A stretch of DNA of 64,000 nucleotides. It comes from a virus. This document shows, one piece after another, positions 32,810 to 63,266 of this stretch (within the stretch, counting starts at the first letter, position 1; every line of letters starts with the position of its first letter). The DNA lies in IMG/VR virus record IMGVR_UViG_3300035670_010029; one strand, given 5' to 3'. Made by a program: the position numbers and the translations under genes. The notes under the pieces were generated by a model, which had not been told where the DNA came from, did no database searches, and saw nothing but the letters and a program-made list of their open reading frames with translations.

Positions 32810-34249
32810 CTATACCCCATCAACAACGTCTACGGTTAAATTAGTCACTGGTCCAGGAGCATAACATTCGGCACAGTTAAAAACATTAGAGTATTGTGCA
32901 GGAATGAAATTTTTACGGTATCTGGCTCCACGGCTAATCAATATATCATCAATATTTCCTACAAAAGGATTTTCTGTATATACTCTACCTATTTCAAAAG
33001 TGTCATAAGAGTAATTGTATCGTGTGTGATCTGCTCCAATAATCAACCAATCTGTATTCAGTGGTATATCATAAGGAAAATAGTTCTGATATGTCTCATT
33101 GCCATTAATATAAAGTCGCAAATATCCGTTAGATCGACAAACCGTAAAATGAGTGAAGTTTGATATCGATACTATAAAGTTAGTATTCGCATTAAGGCTC
33201 TGATAAGTCCAATCTCCTGTATTGTAGTCATAATAGTCTAGATTAACATTGAAGTAAATGCGATTAGAAGAATCAAGATATATCTTAAAATAACTATAAT
33301 TGCTATAATCAAAGTTTTCTTGAGAATAAGCAGATAAGAGAGTTCGATTTGCTGTAGTATTAGAGCCATCGGGTCTTAGCCACATTTCTATTGTAAAATC
33401 ATTATACAAAGACCAAAAAAGATTGTTTGTTGAAGAAAGATCTCTTGTGGCCTTAAGATGATGCGCTGTACTAAAATAAGGAAACTGGTTAGGGTCATTT
33501 GCTACGTCTATTTGACCATCAAACAGCAAACTTCTTCCCCCAAACTGGTAATTATCACTATCGCTTTCAATACCTATATGGTTTATAACACATCCGCTAC
33601 AAGATAAATCATCTATGGTTCCCACATCAATAGCATCAGGTTGTATTAATAGTTTCACAGAACACGGCGAGCTGTCTCCGCCAGAAGGAGTAATAGTATT
33701 ACTAAAACCATAAAGACCTGTTCCTATAGAATTTACAGCCGCCACCCTAAATTCGTAAGTAATATTATTGGTAAGTCCATCCACAGTTAAGCTTGTAGAA
33801 ACATTTATCCCGTCTGATACCGTACCCCATTCAAACTCTTCAACATTCTTATATTGTATTACATAATCGGTCAAAGGAGATCTATTATCATAAGGAGCTG
33901 TCCAGCTTAAATAAACCAAAGAATCTCCATCTAAAGCCGTCACAAAATCTGGTGGTAGTGGTGGCTCTGGAAGTGGTTCATAAGACAAAATATCCAAAAC
34001 ACAATATGATACAGTTGACGGACTTGTTGGTCTGGAATAAGATAACACATCAGAAGATAACCATGTAATATTAATAGGGTTATCTACAATAGTATAAGAT
34101 AAAATATCAGAATTAACATACGTTATTGTTAATTTATTTGTAATGGCAGCATAAGTAAGAACATCTGTAGACAAATAAGAGTGCTTTAAACCATAAATTT
34201 CTCTTTCTTTATATGGTAAGTATAGACCAAAAAAAGGAGGAACTATCAT
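32810..34249 (-). CDS. FN3 + LamG/concanavalin-A-like lectin virion protein
   Basis: FN3 (LSWTAPYDNRSPLTDYVIQY..FRVAAVN) and LamG (DFTIEMWL..THFTVCR..LYING..FVGNIDDILIS). Confidence 0.8.
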   Translation of the reverse strand: MIVPPFFGLYLPYKEREIYGLKHSYLSTDVLTYAAITNKLTITYVNSDILSYTIVDNPINITWLSSDVLSYSRPTSPSTVSYCVLDILSYEPLPEPPLPPDFVTALDGDSLVYLSWTAPYDNRSPLTDYVIQYKNVEEFEWGTVSDGINVSTSLTVDGLTNNITYEFRVAAVNSIGTGLYGFSNTITPSGGDSSPCSVKLLIQPDAIDVGTIDDLSCSGCVINHIGIESDSDNYQFGGRSLLFDGQIDVANDPNQFPYFSTAHHLKATRDLSSTNNLFWSLYNDFTIEMWLRPDGSNTTANRTLLSAYSQENFDYSNYSYFKIYLDSSNRIYFNVNLDYYDYNTGDWTYQSLNANTNFIVSISNFTHFTVCRSNGYLRLYINGNETYQNYFPYDIPLNTDWLIIGADHTRYNYSYDTFEIGRVYTENPFVGNIDDILISRGARYRKNFIPAQYSNVFNCAECYAPGPVTNLTVDVVDGV

Positions 34250-50114: not shown

Positions 50115-50122
50115 TATACACC
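50115..50122 (-). promoter_or_regulatory. GGTGTAT(A/T) motif, putative late promoter element
   Basis: Intergenic, about 46 nt upstream of the 50068 start. The motif recurs in five intergenic gaps. Confidence 0.6.
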
Positions 50123-51051: not shown

Positions 51052-51171
51052 TTACGGGGCGATAAAAAACACCAGCGTCCACCGGGCGATCCACACGCCC
51101 AACACGCCGCCAGCCACGCCTGCGGGGAATGAGGCGAGAACCAGCGCGGCGGCGAAGGCGTCGTTGTTCAA
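51052..51171 (-). CDS. Possible 39-aa hydrophobic membrane peptide (MNNDAFAAALVLASFPAGVAGGVLGVWIARWTLVFFIAP)
   Basis: The TTG start overlaps the upstream TGA stop (TTGA). The ORF fills the GC-rich gap and has a GxxxG-containing hydrophobic stretch. Confidence 0.45.
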   Translation of the reverse strand: MNNDAFAAALVLASFPAGVAGGVLGVWIARWTLVFFIAP

Positions 51172-52040
51172 CTGATGCCCCATTTGGCCAGCAGGTATTC
51201 CTCCACCAGCGACCGATCTTCAGCCGCCAGCGAGGCGTCGTAAACGACGATTTCAAAAATCAGACCATTGAAAAACACCGCCGGATTGAGTCGCGGCAAA
51301 CTGCCGATAGCGACCTGATTGGCCGTAATGCCACTAGCATGGGAAATGTTGGTTGCTGAAACATCAGGCACGCCGTTTAGAAAAACTTGGCCGTTGGTTC
51401 CGTCGAAGACCCACGCGGCCACCTTCGCGGCAGTGCCGATGCTTGTGGCTCCCACTGCGCTTTTAGTTACACCCGGGCTTCCTTCCTCTCGCGCCAGCAC
51501 AACCTTCTGACTGCCATTGTTCCACACGGCCCGCACGTTTTCGTCATCGCTGGCAGAGTTGGCGGCAGCGAGAACGTCTTGAGTTGATCCCGTGGCGTCT
51601 GTCTTCGCGACTGCCAGAATTGTGAATTCGTCGTTGATGCCGTCAAAAAATGCAGCCAGTGCGTCGCACCGCAACGTATCGTCTGATCCGTCAAACTCCA
51701 GGCCATCCAAGCCATTCAACTGGGCGGCCCTTCGCAGCGGCCTAGCGCCAGCCGTTGCCTGCGTAGCGTGGCGCGAGTTGCCCGATTTGTCCTGCCACCG
51801 CGCTACGGCACCGTCCGCCGCAACGAGCGAGCCGCCGGTTGTGGCGTCATAAAGAGTGCTGGCATCAGAGGCGTCAAGCCAGAGCTGAAGACCAGGAACC
51901 TGCGTTGGTAATAACAACGGAGATCCGCTAGCTAATGCGCTCCATGGGCCCTGTCCGTTTTGATTAACAGCAGCAACTCTAACTTTATATGTTATATTGT
52001 TAGTTAATCCAGTAATAAGACCAGAAGTAGCAACACTCAT
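51168..52040 (-). CDS. C-terminal half of an FN3 domain fused to a GC-rich LamG-like domain
   Basis: Begins with ITGLTNNITYKVRVAAVN..GPWS, then LQLWLDASD..RWQDKSGN..LEFDGSDD..EIVVYD..VEEYLLAKWG. Confidence 0.8.
   Translation of the reverse strand: MSVATSGLITGLTNNITYKVRVAAVNQNGQGPWSALASGSPLLLPTQVPGLQLWLDASDASTLYDATTGGSLVAADGAVARWQDKSGNSRHATQATAGARPLRRAAQLNGLDGLEFDGSDDTLRCDALAAFFDGINDEFTILAVAKTDATGSTQDVLAAANSASDDENVRAVWNNGSQKVVLAREEGSPGVTKSAVGATSIGTAAKVAAWVFDGTNGQVFLNGVPDVSATNISHASGITANQVAIGSLPRLNPAVFFNGLIFEIVVYDASLAAEDRSLVEEYLLAKWGIS
51777..51887 (+). repeat. Diverged repeat of the LamG-like N-terminal segment, copy A
   Basis: About 17 mismatches in 111 bp against 53911..54021 (manual count). 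Confidence 0.85.
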
Positions 52041-54741: not shown

Positions 54742-54749
54742 TATACACC
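54742..54749 (-). promoter_or_regulatory. GGTGTAT(A/T) motif
   Basis: Intergenic, upstream of the 54675 start. Confidence 0.6.
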
Positions 54750-55473: not shown

Positions 55474-58400
55474 TTAACAACCATAAAAACGTTTACGAGT
55501 ATAAGTATACCCAGCTCCACTATACTGATTACTCCAAACACTAAATTTAATAAACCACATTTTACCTGTAGAAATTTGTCTCATAATTAATTCATCATTT
55601 ACTATATAATTACCAATACCTCCACCACCCCAAATGTAGTAAAAACTAGACCAAGAACGACCCGATAAGTCGCACTCATTAGTCCAAGATCTAGTCCATT
55701 CTGTGTCTGATGGTCCGTTTCCATCCCAGCCGGTCTGATTCACAGCATTGTATAATCCTTGAGCCGACCCTCTTGTTAAATGCAAAGACCCAGGAACAAT
55801 ATAGTCTATAGTAGACGGAAAAGCATAATTCGCTTCTGTAACAGTTAGGGTGGGACCAAATCCTGTTGCTGTTCCTGGTGTTCCCGTAAGAGTGTTAGAA
55901 GGCTGTCCACTACCCACTGAATTGGTTGCCTTAACCCTAACAGTATATGTAGTGCCGTTAGTTAAACCAGTTATAGTATAATTACTAGAGCTAACTCCTA
56001 TTATAGCACTAGATGCTGTCCAGTTAGTACCATCTGTAGACCACTCTACAATATAGCTTATTGGTTGAGGAATAATACTTACATCATTAAGAGATAATGG
56101 TGTCCAGTATACATCTAATGAAGTAGATGATTCGGGTAAAACATGCGTTAATGTTGGTGCTGTAGACGGAGCCGAATTGTCGCAATTTAAAAATTCTTGT
56201 CTAGTATAAGCAAACCCTCCTCCTTGTGCTCCTTGTTGCCAACTAGAAAAATCTATTTTCCAATATCTATTAGTTGGAACGTGTTTCATAACCAGATCAG
56301 CACCCAAAACATTATTACCAATTCTATACTGTAAAACATTTACAAAAGTGGTCCAATCTGTTCTGGTTCCAAGACCACAAAAATTATTCCAGCCCACCGC
56401 CCACTGAGTATTACTGGGTGAAACAGAAGAATTCCATCCTGTTTCTCCAGCAGCCGGATTGTAAATACCGTTTTGGTTAGCACGCGTAATAGATAAAGCT
56501 CCTGGAATAATAGTATCTATCTCTGAGCCATAATTAGATTTGGTAAATGATACAGAAGGACCAAAAGCACTAAACGCCGGCACAACAGCATCTGACCAAG
56601 CTGTCCAATCACTGTCTCCTGCAGAATTGGTGGCTTTTACCCTAAAAACATAGGATGTACCATTAACCAATCCGGTCACATTGTATAGGAAATTATTTGT
56701 AGTAGCCGACCCCAATACTGTTGAACCTCCGTTTGATGACCATTCTACGGTATATGTTGTTAGAGGTCCCTTGTAGGACCACTCCAAACTTGCTCCATTA
56801 TTTAATGGATAAACAGTAAGATTGGTTGGGGTGTCTGGAGTATTTATAACAGCAAGAAATTGCATTTCAGCAATCCATGCCCGACTAGCTTCTGTGCCAG
56901 GACCATCTGCCCTAGCAGCTGACACAAATAATCTATAATATCTATAGTTTCCAGGACTTGCAACAACAAATTGACCGTAAGGATTATTAGCAGGAGAGGA
57001 TGAGGTGACTAATGGTAAATAAACATTATTCCTAGTGTCTATTGTTTGCCAAGTTCCAAACGTGCTGTTGCCTGCATTATTAGGTAAATTTGTCCAATCT
57101 GATTCAGTATTTGAGCCTTGTAGTATCCAGTTTGTTGGGGTGTTTTGATTACCGGTATTTCGCCACATACGATAACGCAATACTTGCTGGCTGATTCCGA
57201 AATCAATACCAAAAGCACGATTTAATGATGTTGCTTTCCATTGATTGTCATTGTTGTCTGTCAAATTATTGTCAAAAATTTTATTAGCAGTAGATGTGGA
57301 GTACCAGCTATCGTCTTGGCCAAAAGATACTCCTGCATACATTGGCCTAATAGAAGGATTAGGGAACGATGCTGTTGCTAAGATGAAATCAGAGGTGTAC
57401 CTAGCTACATAATTAGTAATTCTGAGTTCATCCAAATATCCGTTGAAAGATCTATTAGTTCCAGTGGTTTGTCCTCCAATAATTAGTTTATCATTTGCAT
57501 TGTAATATAAAGAACCACTAAATCCATATGTATTTATTAACACACCATCAATAAATACTAATAAACTATTATTGTTACGTACTACAGCTATATGTGTCCA
57601 TGTACTCAACGGTATTGTAGTAACAGACGAAATTCCTATTACGTTCCAGTTGCTCCCATTATTAGAAGAATATATAGATAACTCTCCAGAAGGACCAAGA
57701 CCAATACTAATCGCTGCATAAGTATCTGCGTCTCGACTCTGTACAAGCCTGGAATAATTAGGATTATAGCTAGATGGATTTATCCAAAATTCTATAGTAA
57801 AATTATTACTAGCAAAATTAAAATCATTACTCATACCAACAGATAAAGAATCTCCGTTACCGTCAAAATAAATACTGCCTCCACCAAACCGGCTCTGAGA
57901 TGTACTAATAGAAACATCTCCGGTAAGCATAATAGTTTTTATTTCAGTGCTGGCGTCAACGATAGAAGTAGAACCATTTGAGCCGTCTCCGTGTAGTAGT
58001 AAACTAACATTATATTCATACGGATCAGAACCAACACCAACCCCAAAATCTCCCCCAATGAGTCTCTGAGGTTGAACAGACGACGGGGTTATAGGACCTA
58101 CAATGTTGCTATAGGAACTACTGCCAATAATATTGTTTGCTCTAATACTACAATAATAAGGGGTTCCGTTTGATAATCCTGTGATAGTATACGAGGTAGG
58201 CAAGGTAGGCTCGGATATCGACAAATTATTGACGTTTGCTCCAGACATATCAGAGTTTATAGAATATGCTATATCATAACTTGTTATATCAGATCCTCCA
58301 TTGAAAGCATTGTCCCAAAATAATTCAATAGACTGATCTCCATACAAAGCGTCTACACTTAAAGCAGGAGTAAACGGGGGTGTCTCTTGTTCCACAACAG

Positions 58401-59190
58401 AAAATGGAATACTAGGAGCAGTAAAATTAGAAGTATATCTTGCTACTCCAATAGAAAATCTAAGCTCTGTCATATGACCAACAAAAGACTGATTATCATA
58501 ATTTCCTATTCTAATAGTAGTAGCTGTGTGTATTTTAGTTGTGTTCGCTGTAGAGCCGTATTGAACGCCATTTACAAAACACTTTAGAGAAGTTCCAGAT
58601 TTGACAAAGACAATATGGTGCCAAGAACCAGCACTAACATTAATTCCGCCGGTTATATTGCCAAAAACCCAATTGCCGAAACCTCCGTCAGCAAAAATTC
58701 TTCCGTCATTATCAAAACCAAATACTGCTCCGTCTCCACTGTTTTTATATGTGCTGAATAATGTATAGTATCCATTGGGTTGTCTTTTGATTGGCTTAAA
58801 CCAACACTCAATAGTATAGTCTTTACTATTTATGCTTAGGTTTGTATTGCTGCTTGTAACAATAGAAGCATATGATCCATTAACATCAGAGTAATCATCA
58901 TTATAAATAGCATTAACTGGAAAATTATTAGGACCAACAATAATTTGTTTAGTAAACTTAGTGATATTTAGAGATATAGCAAAGTTAGACACATCTGTTA
59001 TATTTGCTGTTCTAGAAGTTAACAATAGGCTATTGCTATCAAAATATATATCTTTTGATGCTTCCACAGAACCTGGCCAGACACCAGCTTCTCTAAGAGC
59101 ATACACTTCATTTATTCCCCAAACCCCGTTATTATTGTTGTCTCCAATATATTTAGGGTCTAGCTTATTAAAGCGGCCACCATACATCAT
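55474..59190 (-). CDS. Multidomain lectin-like appendage protein: 2 LamG, 3 FN3, 1 discoidin/F5-8C-like and 2 copies of a ~130-aa module
   Basis: N-terminal GVWGINEVY..WP. LamG motifs DYTIECWF and NFTIEFWI. Discoidin-like PTNWILQGSN..YRYYRL..IAEMQF. Duplicated ITR...GIYN...LVM...W.I.FS.W...F.YTR module. Confidence 0.8.
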   Translation of the reverse strand: MMYGGRFNKLDPKYIGDNNNNGVWGINEVYALREAGVWPGSVEASKDIYFDSNSLLLTSRTANITDVSNFAISLNITKFTKQIIVGPNNFPVNAIYNDDYSDVNGSYASIVTSSNTNLSINSKDYTIECWFKPIKRQPNGYYTLFSTYKNSGDGAVFGFDNDGRIFADGGFGNWVFGNITGGINVSAGSWHHIVFVKSGTSLKCFVNGVQYGSTANTTKIHTATTIRIGNYDNQSFVGHMTELRFSIGVARYTSNFTAPSIPFSVVEQETPPFTPALSVDALYGDQSIELFWDNAFNGGSDITSYDIAYSINSDMSGANVNNLSISEPTLPTSYTITGLSNGTPYYCSIRANNIIGSSSYSNIVGPITPSSVQPQRLIGGDFGVGVGSDPYEYNVSLLLHGDGSNGSTSIVDASTEIKTIMLTGDVSISTSQSRFGGGSIYFDGNGDSLSVGMSNDFNFASNNFTIEFWINPSSYNPNYSRLVQSRDADTYAAISIGLGPSGELSIYSSNNGSNWNVIGISSVTTIPLSTWTHIAVVRNNNSLLVFIDGVLINTYGFSGSLYYNANDKLIIGGQTTGTNRSFNGYLDELRITNYVARYTSDFILATASFPNPSIRPMYAGVSFGQDDSWYSTSTANKIFDNNLTDNNDNQWKATSLNRAFGIDFGISQQVLRYRMWRNTGNQNTPTNWILQGSNTESDWTNLPNNAGNSTFGTWQTIDTRNNVYLPLVTSSSPANNPYGQFVVASPGNYRYYRLFVSAARADGPGTEASRAWIAEMQFLAVINTPDTPTNLTVYPLNNGASLEWSYKGPLTTYTVEWSSNGGSTVLGSATTNNFLYNVTGLVNGTSYVFRVKATNSAGDSDWTAWSDAVVPAFSAFGPSVSFTKSNYGSEIDTIIPGALSITRANQNGIYNPAAGETGWNSSVSPSNTQWAVGWNNFCGLGTRTDWTTFVNVLQYRIGNNVLGADLVMKHVPTNRYWKIDFSSWQQGAQGGGFAYTRQEFLNCDNSAPSTAPTLTHVLPESSTSLDVYWTPLSLNDVSIIPQPISYIVEWSTDGTNWTASSAIIGVSSSNYTITGLTNGTTYTVRVKATNSVGSGQPSNTLTGTPGTATGFGPTLTVTEANYAFPSTIDYIVPGSLHLTRGSAQGLYNAVNQTGWDGNGPSDTEWTRSWTNECDLSGRSWSSFYYIWGGGGIGNYIVNDELIMRQISTGKMWFIKFSVWSNQYSGAGYTYTRKRFYGC

Positions 59191-59558
59191 GATATTACCT
59201 CATAGCTTACTACAATACTTAAACCAGATGGTATACTAGATGTGGCTCTAATAGATCTAGCCTCATTTAGATATACTGGTGCATGTTGTGATACCGGCAC
59301 GACCGATTGGCTGTGAGGAACGTTCATATTTTTAGTAAAATAAGCCATAATTGATGAGCTTGAGTTATTGTATAAATCAATAGTAAGATCAGCATCATCT
59401 GTTGGATGAATATTAGACACATAAATAGTATTAATTTTATATACGAATCCGCTACTATCGTTGTTTACTAAGATACCGGTTGGTGTGGTAGGAATATTTA
59501 CGATTCCTTCTCCTATACCATAAACATTATTAAGATTTTTTAAGTCTGGGTTGGCCAT
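59187..59558 (-). CDS. Small beta-sandwich virion protein (MANP.. type), probable docking adaptor
   Basis: MANPD..SSGFVYKINTIYVSNI..VYLNE..VVSYEVIS. ATGA coupling to the following lectin gene. AGGAG Shine-Dalgarno. Confidence 0.6.
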   Translation of the reverse strand: MANPDLKNLNNVYGIGEGIVNIPTTPTGILVNNDSSGFVYKINTIYVSNIHPTDDADLTIDLYNNSSSSIMAYFTKNMNVPHSQSVVPVSQHAPVYLNEARSIRATSSIPSGLSIVVSYEVIS

Positions 59559-59583: not shown

Positions 59584-59591
59584 AATACACC
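59584..59591 (-). promoter_or_regulatory. GGTGTAT(A/T) motif
   Basis: Intergenic, upstream of the 59558 start. Confidence 0.6.
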
Positions 59592-59632: not shown

Positions 59633-61234
59633 TTAGGATGTTCCTGTATTTATGTCGTAATTAAGCTCGTAAATTGTATTCTTGGCATTCTCAATATAAA
59701 CTAGATTCATAATTTGATATACATAGTTTGACGAAATAACATCCGGCAATATTTCTGATGTAAGATCACACAATGGAGCCTGAGATAGATATCCGCTATT
59801 AGAAGCTAAACTATAACTGCCCGTTCCAAAAATATTGACAGCAGCAACACGAGCAACATATGTATTGTCTGGTACAAGTCCTGTTAGCTTAATGTTGGTA
59901 CCTGTACTAACAATATCGGTATATGAAGTCCAGGATAAGCCATTATCATTGGAGTATTGGATAATATAATCGACAATATCAGAACCACCATTGTATGGTT
60001 CATTCCAAGATAGTATAAGTCTGGCCGGAAGTTCTGTAATAAATACACTATCTGGCGCATTCGGCACTGTAGCAGGGATACCTGTAATAAACGAACTATA
60101 CAAACCAGTACCTAATATATTTATAGCAGCAACACTGAAAAAATAACCTGTTCCGTTTGACAGACTAGTGAAAGTGTAGTCTGTGATTGTGCTATTTGTG
60201 TTTACTAACAAAGGCTCATTATTACCAGAACTATATTGTATACTATAGTTCAAAATATTTCTGCCACCATTAAAAGGGGCTTGCCAAGATAATTGTATGG
60301 TACTATCCCCGGTAACAGCAGATAAGTTAGTTGGTGTGTCAGGTATGGTGGCTGGTATGCCCGAGGTGATACTATAATTACCAGTAGCAAAACTATTAAT
60401 GGCGGCTATTCTTATAGTATATAATGAACCATTATTTAATCCGCTAAGCACATGTAGTAGCTGGTTTGTTCTTCCTAATAAAAACGAAACTGGAGATTGA
60501 TTGTTTTCAGTATATTCTACAACATAATCTATAATATCGTCGCCATTATCATCTAAAGGAGTATTCCAAGATAAACCCAAGGTAGTATTGCCAAACTCGT
60601 TGTTCAGATCAACGGGGGGCGTTGGTCCTGTAATGGGTGTGCCTGTGATTGGAAAGGGGCCTTTTGGAGGTTCAAAATTATTCAGATATCGTGCTCCACT
60701 AACACCTTTGGTTATTCTAAAGTCATCAATATATCCTAAATATTGCTCGTTTAACGGAGGATAGTTTCCTATATAAATAGGAGCAGGAATATTTGTGTTT
60801 GTGATATTAGAAGATAGCACACCAGTACCGTTAAGATAGAGCTTAAGATTGCCTGTTTGATATACGGCGGCTATGTGATTCCATGCTCCCGACACAGGGC
60901 TTGTGTTACCCGTATAAGCCACACCATTATAAAAAGATAAGTTCCCATTAGAGCTATTTAAATATACGCCCCAAGCGCACCCAGAAGCTTCTGATCTTTT
61001 GGCCACAATTGTACGATTAGAGCTATAATTCCCAGAAGGCTTAATCCAGCACTCAATAGTATACTCATTATCTGCTAAATTAAAGTCCTTATTATCATCA
61101 ATATACAAAAAACTGCCCAAATCTGGACAGTACAAACTAGCAGAACCAAACTTACCGTATCCGCTAGCTATAGTGGCATTACCACTAATAGATATGTTTT
61201 TAGGTTTAGGAGAATAATCGTTAATAACGGCCAT
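59633..61234 (-). CDS. LamG-like domain (lacking its first strand) + 3 FN3
   Basis: KFGSASLY..EYTIECWIKP..WNHIAAV..YIDDFRITKG, followed by three FN3 repeats. Confidence 0.8.
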   Translation of the reverse strand: MAVINDYSPKPKNISISGNATIASGYGKFGSASLYCPDLGSFLYIDDNKDFNLADNEYTIECWIKPSGNYSSNRTIVAKRSEASGCAWGVYLNSSNGNLSFYNGVAYTGNTSPVSGAWNHIAAVYQTGNLKLYLNGTGVLSSNITNTNIPAPIYIGNYPPLNEQYLGYIDDFRITKGVSGARYLNNFEPPKGPFPITGTPITGPTPPVDLNNEFGNTTLGLSWNTPLDDNGDDIIDYVVEYTENNQSPVSFLLGRTNQLLHVLSGLNNGSLYTIRIAAINSFATGNYSITSGIPATIPDTPTNLSAVTGDSTIQLSWQAPFNGGRNILNYSIQYSSGNNEPLLVNTNSTITDYTFTSLSNGTGYFFSVAAINILGTGLYSSFITGIPATVPNAPDSVFITELPARLILSWNEPYNGGSDIVDYIIQYSNDNGLSWTSYTDIVSTGTNIKLTGLVPDNTYVARVAAVNIFGTGSYSLASNSGYLSQAPLCDLTSEILPDVISSNYVYQIMNLVYIENAKNTIYELNYDINTGTS

Positions 61235-61270
61235 TATTGGTCCTTAAAATAGAATGCAACCTCAGAAAAT

Positions 61271-61289
61271 AATACACCCTTTATACACT
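61271..61289 (-). promoter_or_regulatory. GGTGTAT(A/T) motif preceded by an AGTGTATA variant
   Basis: Intergenic, upstream of the 61234 start. Confidence 0.6.
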
Positions 61290-62146
61290 TATAGTAAGTC
61301 ACCCATTCTTAATACTACTCTTGTCTTGTTATGCAGATTGTCGAAGGGAGTCTCGTAAGTAAAGGGCTGTTGATTGTGTATACTTTGCAAAGATTTGTTC
61401 AATGACGATATACGATAAAAATATGATGTTGTGTTATAAATATCAGAAGATTGATAGTATGTTGTGCCGGAAGGTAGTCTATCTATAACAATCCAATTAG
61501 ATCCATTAATACTATACTCTATTATATATTCGGTTAAATCTGTCTTTGGTTCTTCCCAAGTTAATCCTATTAGTTGGTCTGTCTCAGGATAAGCATAAAA
61601 AGTGGTAATTGGAGATGGCTTACTAATTGGCACCAAGCCAGTAATCATGTTAGAAAACAAACCTGTTCCTACGCTATTAATAGCAGCAACACGTATAGAG
61701 TAAGGGTTATTGTTGATCAAATTGAACAGAATATACTTGTTGTCTGTGCCTTCGGTATTTACGTAAACTGATTCTTCATTATTTTTATAATACTCTATAA
61801 TATAGTCTTTAATAAAACATCTTCCATCCTCCTGCGGAGGATCCCAATATAGGTCTAGTTTACGATCTCCTGTAATCGCAACTAAATTTATTGGAGTCGA
61901 TGGAGGCGACCCAAGAACCATACCAGAAACAACATTAGAATACAGTCCAGTTCCTACACTATTAGATGATGCTACTCTAAAACGATAAAATGAACAATCG
62001 TCTAAACCTGAAACAAATCCGGATGTTTGTGTGCTAATTCCATCGTTATATATTTTCCAGTCTTCGTCGTGTAAACTATACTCAATAATATAGTCATCTA
62101 CAACAGAGTTTGATGGAGCATCCCATGATAAAAGAAATTGTTTCAT
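61289..62146 (-). CDS. Three-FN3 protein (first FN3 lacks strand A)
   Basis: LSWDAP..YIIEYS..FRVASSN, repeated three times. Confidence 0.8.
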   Translation of the reverse strand: MKQFLLSWDAPSNSVVDDYIIEYSLHDEDWKIYNDGISTQTSGFVSGLDDCSFYRFRVASSNSVGTGLYSNVVSGMVLGSPPSTPINLVAITGDRKLDLYWDPPQEDGRCFIKDYIIEYYKNNEESVYVNTEGTDNKYILFNLINNNPYSIRVAAINSVGTGLFSNMITGLVPISKPSPITTFYAYPETDQLIGLTWEEPKTDLTEYIIEYSINGSNWIVIDRLPSGTTYYQSSDIYNTTSYFYRISSLNKSLQSIHNQQPFTYETPFDNLHNKTRVVLRMGDLL

Positions 62147-62154
62147 GTGTACTT

Positions 62155-63222
62155 TTATTCAAAAGATAGTAACAGTCTTGTCTTATTGTATAGGTCGTCT
62201 CCTGAGATCACTATGACATCAGAAGCAAAAGAATATGGTCCCGTTCCGCTACTATTAACTGCAGCTACACGAAACATATAGGTTAAGCCATTGGTTAAGC
62301 CAGTAACAATAGCGAATAGGTCAGAACCTAATAGTGAAGGATAGTTTATCCAGGACTGGCCGTAATCTAAAGAGTATTGAACTACATAATTAGTAATTAC
62401 ATATTCACCATCACATTTGGGTGTGGTCCAAAATAAATATGCAGCAGAATCTAGTGCTGAGGCTACAAGATCTTGTGGAGCATCAGGTGGTCCAACGTAA
62501 GGCACACATTCTCCAAACGTATCTACACTATAACAGTCGGGACAAGATACGGCTTGTTCTATAATTTTAAGATCCCAGATATATGAAACAACTTCTTCAG
62601 GCGATAAAGCAGCATCAATACCTGCTATTAGATATGAGTATAAACTTAAAATAGCACTATTAGCACTAGTATATTTTTTATACAAAACTATTAATTGTTC
62701 ATAAGACAAAGACAGAGGCTGTCCATTAATATCATAAATAGTAGGCATAATAGCATTGGTGTCATTACTATATAATATGTTTGCAGACAAAACTGCTGTA
62801 GCTAAGTTAGCCTGTGCTTCTGTGGTTAAACCCAAAATGACTCTAGTTCCATCAGAGGTTGTGGTATTGTATCCTTGATCTATACGCGCTTTATATGCTT
62901 TATCAATAATTTCTTTTTGTGTGGCACGATACGTCTCTAACGGAGGTTCATCAGGAGTATTGCCGCAATCATCGAGCCAAATTCTATAACATTCCCATGC
63001 TGAAATAATATCAAATTCCTCGTTTGCTGAACATGGTTCGATAGTGAGGCTAGAAGTATTGGTCAAAAGTATTATATCATTAGTGTCTATGTCGAGACGA
63101 TATACAGGAGCATCAAAAGCAGAAACTGGTACTGCTCTAGTACCATCACTGATTGTTGCTGCATACTGATATCTATACTTATTACAACATAGATCGTTAA
63201 TGTTTTGATAATTACAAAGCAT
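62155..63222 (-). CDS. Cys-rich N-terminus + DUF4376-like domain + FN3
   Basis: EAQANL..IYDINGQPLSLSYEQL..IDAALSPEEV.SYIW resembles DUF4376. C-terminal FN3. Confidence 0.6.
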   Translation of the reverse strand: MLCNYQNINDLCCNKYRYQYAATISDGTRAVPVSAFDAPVYRLDIDTNDIILLTNTSSLTIEPCSANEEFDIISAWECYRIWLDDCGNTPDEPPLETYRATQKEIIDKAYKARIDQGYNTTTSDGTRVILGLTTEAQANLATAVLSANILYSNDTNAIMPTIYDINGQPLSLSYEQLIVLYKKYTSANSAILSLYSYLIAGIDAALSPEEVVSYIWDLKIIEQAVSCPDCYSVDTFGECVPYVGPPDAPQDLVASALDSAAYLFWTTPKCDGEYVITNYVVQYSLDYGQSWINYPSLLGSDLFAIVTGLTNGLTYMFRVAAVNSSGTGPYSFASDVIVISGDDLYNKTRLLLSFE

Positions 63223-63258: not shown

Positions 63259-63266
63259 TATACACC
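63259..63266 (-). promoter_or_regulatory. GGTGTAT(A/T) motif
   Basis: Intergenic, upstream of the 63222 start. Confidence 0.6.

Follow-up and report, generated by a model that had tools for sequence, protein, structure and literature searches.

Can a protein domain that is divided between two phage genes be reassembled, after translation, from the two gene products? This question was raised by a locus in a stretch of viral DNA from IMG/VR record IMGVR_UViG_3300035670_010029; the stretch analyzed here (the window) comprises 64 kb, the recorded length of the whole contig being 161,496 bases. Two neighboring genes in the window, which we designate A and B, each encode part of one LamG domain: A ends in a C-terminal tail corresponding to the first strand (beta1) of the domain, and B begins with a LamG domain that is missing this strand. 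A third gene, C, ends in a second tail of the same type (Table 1). The original prediction, made from the letters of the window, was that donor-strand complementation links the separately encoded proteins, with leftover gene fission as the alternative. On the basis of sequence comparison and structural modeling, we favor with moderate confidence the interpretation that a gene fission in the turn between beta1 and beta2 has been kept functional by strand complementation in trans, A plugging into B.

A LamG domain divided between two genes

The tails of A and C were closely alike, and both had a core of NKTR plus three aliphatic residues. In a MAFFT alignment with 22 fused LamG repeats, the tail of A was placed on their beta1 motif, and Met1 of B on the residues just past the beta1-beta2 turn. 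When the junction was read through and aligned with the same 22 repeats, the translated A-B gap appeared as an insertion, and the tail together with the N-terminal domain of B matched one fused Laminin_G_3 (PF13385) repeat column for column. The N-terminal domain of B matched the Laminin_G_3 profile over residues 50-176 with a score of 77.9 bits (cut-off 27.6). Five LamG domains were found in the window by profile, and that of B alone was without beta1. The LamG first strand predicted at the ends of A and C was borne out by the coordinates, the peptides and the alignment with fused repeats. The counterpart prediction, that B is a LamG domain minus the first strand, was likewise confirmed by the Pfam match, by the start past the turn and by B being the only beta1-less domain of the five.

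B does not have a complete set of strands in one chain, and its start lay past the beta1-beta2 turn in all orthologues. By sequence and homology, and with conservation among relatives, the locus encodes an acceptor that is one strand short, and the strand that matches lies at the end of a different polypeptide. The nearest fused homologues of B, P0006 and P0007 (44% identity), carry beta1 in the same chain. Among 208 LamG-type domains from the window and the fetched loci, the internal ones that were inspected had the upstream strand in the same open reading frame (ORF). As a check on chance resemblance, a short hidden Markov model of beta1 (mini-HMM), from which the window's own domain had been excluded, was applied to 2003 ORF C-termini taken from the window and all the fetched loci. 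The top scores belonged almost exclusively to A-type and C-type tails and their orthologues, with 7.1-14.1 bits for the orthologues of the A tail and 7.1-16.9 bits for C-type tails.

Two further features of the beta1 motif were observed. P0072 and P0038 (N-terminal 70 residues) have a tandem pair of beta1 motifs ahead of a single LamG domain; therefore, extra copies of beta1 occur in fused proteins too. The motif also includes an Asn-x-Thr/Ser triplet, which is NKT in the two tails of the window (61310..61318 and 62176..62184) and often NVS in fused repeats.

Conservation of the split in relatives

Relatives of the locus were obtained from a metagenome protein index and from metagenome assemblies; no close relatives were found among INPHARED phages by a DNA search or in IMG/VR by protein patterns. 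A search of a representative library was dominated by multi-repeat LamG proteins and was used solely for N-terminal examples. The split was kept in six lineages: the window with L004, L010 and L011, which are nearly identical to it; P0002 with P0017; L006; L001 with P0018; L002 with L003; and L060. Identity of the B domain among the six lineages went down to 59-68%. In every orthologous locus, A was 285-291 amino acids (aa) long, ended in a tail and preceded B (the L060 contig contains the 3' end of A only), and B started at the same residue in all orthologues. The B protein of L060, P0170, is 1,456 aa long and has extra C-terminal domains, with an unchanged N-terminus. No fused A-B protein was found in searches of the near and longer length classes. 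The same split was thus present in every relative found and is not unique to this genome, a point that the original prediction had set out for checking.

A and B are separate genes. They lie in the same frame in the window, where three in-frame stops, TAA, TGA and TAA (the stop of A included), are followed by AAGGA and ATG. Among the relatives the A-B gaps, at 54, 44, 44, 50 and 72 nucleotides (nt), had differing frame offsets, and the frame of B was closed inside each of them. The claim that the arrangement is not simple readthrough was therefore upheld by the separate genes, the varied gap length and frame, and the closed frame of B. The in-frame TGA, the Shine-Dalgarno sequence and the GGTGTAT motif that had been described in the gap were all present, but the TGA is one of three in-frame stops and not the sole one.

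Selection on the tail

In comparisons of the window with L001, L006 and L002, the last 19 codons of A had ratios of nonsynonymous to synonymous divergence (pN/pS) of 0.20-0.29, with synonymous divergence (pS) of 0.73-1.04 (saturated). The corresponding pN/pS values were 0.30-0.50 for the whole of gene A and 0.25-0.82 for the 20 codons preceding the tail. Nine of the 19 tail positions were invariant in seven A orthologues. Because synonymous sites were saturated while pN/pS was low, the constraint acts on the peptide and not on the DNA, and codon comparison thus indicates that the tail is under purifying, protein-level selection. Retention of the tail as a DNA recombination or regulatory site was considered and rejected, since its synonymous sites are saturated.

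L001 and L004 both have a conserved C-type tail. The protein encoded ahead of A in L006 has an Mtd_N-like N-terminal part that resembles part of a 793-aa protein of the window; the L006 protein shares with C its last 110 aa alone (FN3 and tail, 54% identity). The FN3 domain and tail were retained while the rest was exchanged, as expected of a docking element. A possible compensating pair, found in the lineage of the window and L004 only, consists of Val for Leu in the tail and Phe for Leu at residue 171 of B; as a single event, it is weak evidence.

Structural models of the junction and of A

To model the junction as one chain, we used a read-through construct (window 60635-61393, minus strand, stops as Gly) consisting of the last 34 residues of A, the translated gap and residues 1-200 of B. 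The AlphaFold2 (AF2) model of this construct had a predicted template modeling score (pTM) of 0.84. The core of the tail formed a beta-strand with a block mean predicted local distance difference test score (pLDDT) of 91, and the translated gap had a pLDDT <50. The N-terminal domain of B was folded in this model as a jelly roll matching solved concanavalin A-like (ConA-like) members. The best solved match was domain 4 of AbnA (5hon_A), aligned by VIA-align with a Z score of 21.5 and a root-mean-square deviation of 2.3 A over 188 residues. This alignment, of model residues 23..244 with chain residues 643..845, began inside the tail and ran to the end of the domain. The tail is predicted to take the position of the first strand because solved ConA-like jelly rolls align from inside it. 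Matches to the clostridial toxin binding domain in the same list reflect the shared lectin-like fold class only. The AF2 fold used a 31-row alignment dominated by fused homologues; what the model therefore shows is a fit of the tail to the slot, both sterically and in sequence, and not binding in trans.

Full-length A modeled alone with AF2 had three FN3 domains and a tail with pLDDT <50, and no partner for the tail in cis was therefore apparent. Packing of the tail on the FN3 domains of A itself was unsupported in this model.

Proposed mechanism

In the favored interpretation, an ancestral gene with FN3 domains on either side of a LamG domain would have been cut in the turn between strands 1 and 2 of the LamG jelly roll. 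Strand 1 would have become the free C-terminal tail of A, and B would begin with strand 2. After translation, the tail of A would insert into the vacant first-strand position of the LamG domain of B, probably beside the conserved last strand, so that the sandwich would be restored and A tied non-covalently to B. The cut would also permit separate expression of B. C, and in relatives a different protein with the FN3 and tail unit, would probably dock in the same kind of socket. The donor-strand complementation originally predicted for A and B fits the separate genes, the conserved split, the purifying selection and the modeled fit of the slot; the binding of A to B, its stoichiometry and the role of C are what we infer.

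The original prediction also had A and C as two alternative donors to the one acceptor. The tail of C is the same kind of plug as that of A, B has the only beta1-less LamG domain within the 64 kb of the window, and use of the socket of B by C is plausible. A broader version, which we regard as tentative and rather doubtful, is that the strand-less LamG domain of B is a general socket and that FN3 with a beta1 tail is a portable plug for A, C, the Mtd_N-type protein of L006 and perhaps the internal copy in L002 described below. If true, the adhesin would be branched or exchangeable, with a composition set by separate promoters, and fission inside a fold would be a phage route from one long fiber gene to a modular kit.

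Alternative explanations

Several observations weigh against strand complementation. The docking seen in the AF2 model was largely homology-driven. The tail of A in the window alone scored 1.2 bits with the mini-HMM, and 84 of the 2003 C-termini scored equal or better; because this copy is a weak match and its orthologues are strong, the significance of the tail rests on the family and not on the single copy. In L009, three paralogous multi-LamG genes (336, 3001 and 12852) start with a beta1-less LamG domain and no upstream gene ends in a donor tail; in some contexts, therefore, beta1 may not be needed. A 1,111-aa protein of L049 (4600-4672) has a complete LamG domain and, beyond it, a beta1 motif that lies 18 residues from the stop; the next gene is unrelated and no acceptor follows, which shows that orphan strands can be mere remnants. 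A C-like protein of 1,041 aa in L002 (3943-7068) has the C-type motif internally, at about residue 897, followed by a non-LamG domain of about 140 aa; this domain occurs twice in a 1,238-aa protein of the window, there without the motif. Other domain stubs at gene ends in the window would also fit frequent recombination scars.

These observations bear mainly on the alternative that the arrangement is a relic of fission or recombination, with the LamG domain of B stable without the strand and A and B assembled, if at all, by other contacts. We consider this somewhat unlikely. In addition to the beta1-less N-terminal LamG domains of L009, the orphan strand of L049, the truncated FN3 domains found at the ends of genes of the window and the homology-driven docking, it is favored by a locus resembling a recent frameshift at the same point. 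In this locus (L008:2900-3060, an unrelated AT-rich contig), a PKD-domain protein ends in the first strand of a LamG domain; three TAA stops follow in tandem, and 10 nt after the stops the next gene starts with a strand-less LamG domain. A turn of normal length is restored when the +1 frame is read, and L008 may therefore represent +1 recoding, a recent frameshift or an assembly error. A tail without a use would be expected to drift or vanish, however, yet that of A was at least as constrained as the FN3 domains, with synonymous divergence at saturation. It was present in all six lineages, the tail was kept when the body of the protein was swapped, and it had no confident partner in cis in the model of A alone. 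Fission is probably the origin of the arrangement and not a rival to strand complementation; the data speak against a leftover in decay. Another candidate split, at L007:1150-1212 (P0065), was rejected: the called start is an internal Met, and the ORF opens 20 codons upstream and includes beta1.

A less probable alternative, and to us an improbable one, is that the tails plug another socket: either the tail of C completes the first FN3 domain of A, which is without strand A, or the partner lies outside the window, which is the visible part of the contig. The first FN3 domain of A (start 62104..62146) begins at strand B in all orthologues and was modeled with lower confidence (pLDDT about 70, against about 88-92 for the other two), and the plug-carrying gene is always directly before A. 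Both tails, on the other hand, match the LamG beta1 motif and not the Pro-rich FN3 strand-A motif of this phage, and B has the only beta1-less LamG domain seen in the window. Moreover, a separate gene, 32810..34249, already ends in a stub resembling FN3 strand A (32810..32870). This stub and the first FN3 domain of A may form a second split-domain joint. A further cut domain is found in gene 51168..52040 (290 aa), which opens partway through an FN3 domain, with residues 8-35 matching positions 52-79 of the Pfam fn3 profile, and continues with LamG. The cut domains of the window may represent additional joints or else scars left by repeats that recombine often.

Synthesis of A and B as a single chain, whether through readthrough, frameshifting or hopping of the ribosome, is extremely improbable, and programmed recoding was rejected: the two genes share a frame across a short gap in the window, but three in-frame stops intervene there, the gaps of the relatives (44-72 nt) have other frame offsets with the frame of B closed in all loci, and the Shine-Dalgarno sequence, the ATG and the promoter-like motif are conserved.

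Comparison with known systems

In the chaperone-usher pili (Pap/Fim), a terminal extension of one polypeptide fills out, in trans, the incomplete beta-sandwich of another. The strand missing there is the C-terminal G strand of an immunoglobulin-like (Ig-like) pilin; an N-terminal extension acts as donor, and the process requires a periplasmic chaperone as well as an usher. Unlike in these pili, neither a G-strand gap nor an N-terminal donor, chaperone or usher was seen at the present locus. Among the Pfam and PHROG matches of the neighboring genes there was no chaperone or usher and no processing protease; the 123-aa gene after B was without a family.

A solved precedent from a phage is the baseplate tripod of Lactococcus phage Tuc2009, in which the C-terminal extension of BppU (residues 296-321) completes a beta-sheet of the sandwich of BppA domain 2, and the BppU-BppA composite resembles a whole Ig-like domain (PMC4742702). 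An analogous arrangement, in which the C-terminal extension of one tail-tip protein completes the sandwich of another, is predicted here. The donor of Tuc2009 is a beta-hairpin and the composite is titin/Ig-like, whereas a single strand and the first-strand slot of a LamG/ConA-like domain are predicted for A and B. A further difference is that the two halves are recognizable here as one domain, fused in homologues, that has been cut.

In the type V pili (FimA/Mfa1), protease-mediated strand exchange leads to replacement of the N-terminal strand of the acceptor by a C-terminal donor strand, giving a stable non-covalent link (PMC13655056). Their acceptor is made complete, its own strand is removed by the protease, and the subunits homopolymerize; B, in contrast, is encoded without the strand, the partners differ and no protease is implied. 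In the contractile sheaths of phage-like injection systems, the terminal strands of neighboring protomers augment each other's sheets (PMC13266070). This exchange forms a homotypic lattice, whereas the cut lectin-like domain here would be shared by two different fiber proteins. The fused Laminin_G_3 repeats (P0006 and the repeats in L007-L009) belong to the same family as the domain of B, but have strand 1 and the rest in one chain. The present case, as known from sequence comparison and modeling, differs from the known systems in that the domain is a LamG jelly roll, the acceptor is encoded strand-less and the halves are visibly one cut domain.

If A does plug into B, a phage can split a long fiber gene without losing the link between its products; these could be made in different amounts, and their receptor-binding parts could be swapped. 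The one solved phage two-gene beta-sandwich, that of Tuc2009, would thereby be extended to a lectin domain, LamG, that is very common in the fibers of environmental phages. For annotation, a gene ending in an orphan first strand beside a domain without that strand would then be read as a protein-protein joint. A short natural plug-and-socket pair of this kind could also serve as a protein-assembly tag.

The GGTGTAT motif and expression of B

Every A-B gap had GGTGTAT 42-49 nt before the start of B. More generally, most intergenic gaps of more than 25 nt had GGTGTAT(A/T) 25-65 nt ahead of the start codon, and the motif was kept in the orthologous gaps of relatives, among them L001, L002, L006 and L060. 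The total count of GGTGTAT in the window was not above chance (10, with 8.6 expected), and its placement is the notable part. These sequence observations suggest that GGTGTAT is a phage promoter or a similar control element. Because the motif lies in each A-B gap and in most other gaps, B probably has its own promoter or similar control element; with a promoter-like element and a ribosome-binding site in the cut, B could therefore be expressed alone. On the minus strand, GGTGTAT was located at window positions 50116..50122, 54743..54749, 59585..59591, 61272..61278 and 63260..63266.

Gene layout of the region

The minus strand carries every gene of the region. Pfam and PHROG matches of A, B and C were to fn3, Laminin_G_3 and tail categories (minor tail protein, tail fiber), and very large structural proteins, one of them of 5,503 aa, are also encoded in the window. 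The best explanation is that A, B and C are tail-fiber or minor-tail proteins of a large uncultured phage.

Table 1. Positions in the window of the genes and domain parts discussed in the text.
Feature	Position	Strand	Description
Gene A	61289..62146	minus	285 aa; three FN3 domains and C-terminal tail; Pfam fn3 E 5.2e-25
A tail	61292..61348	minus	A residues 267-285; orphan LamG beta1, candidate donor plug
A-B gap	61235..61288	minus	54 nt; GGTGTAT at 61272..61278; AAGGA Shine-Dalgarno upstream of the ATG of B
Gene B	59633..61234	minus	533 aa; candidate acceptor; N-terminal LamG without beta1, then FN3 domains; Pfam fn3 E 3.9e-37
B LamG	60650..61234	minus	about residues 1-195; Pfam Laminin_G_3 E 1.2e-21
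Gene C	62155..63222	minus	355 aa; tail-fiber-like: DUF4376-like region, one FN3 domain, second beta1-type tail
C tail	62158..62199	minus	beta1-type; end of gene C
Reference intact LamG	57346..58038	minus	with own beta1 directly upstream of the HMM match; inside 55474..59190; Pfam Laminin_G_3 E 5.8e-41

A small gene without a Pfam or PHROG family (59187..59558; 119-123 aa across relatives, 123 aa in the window) was conserved directly after B in all relatives.

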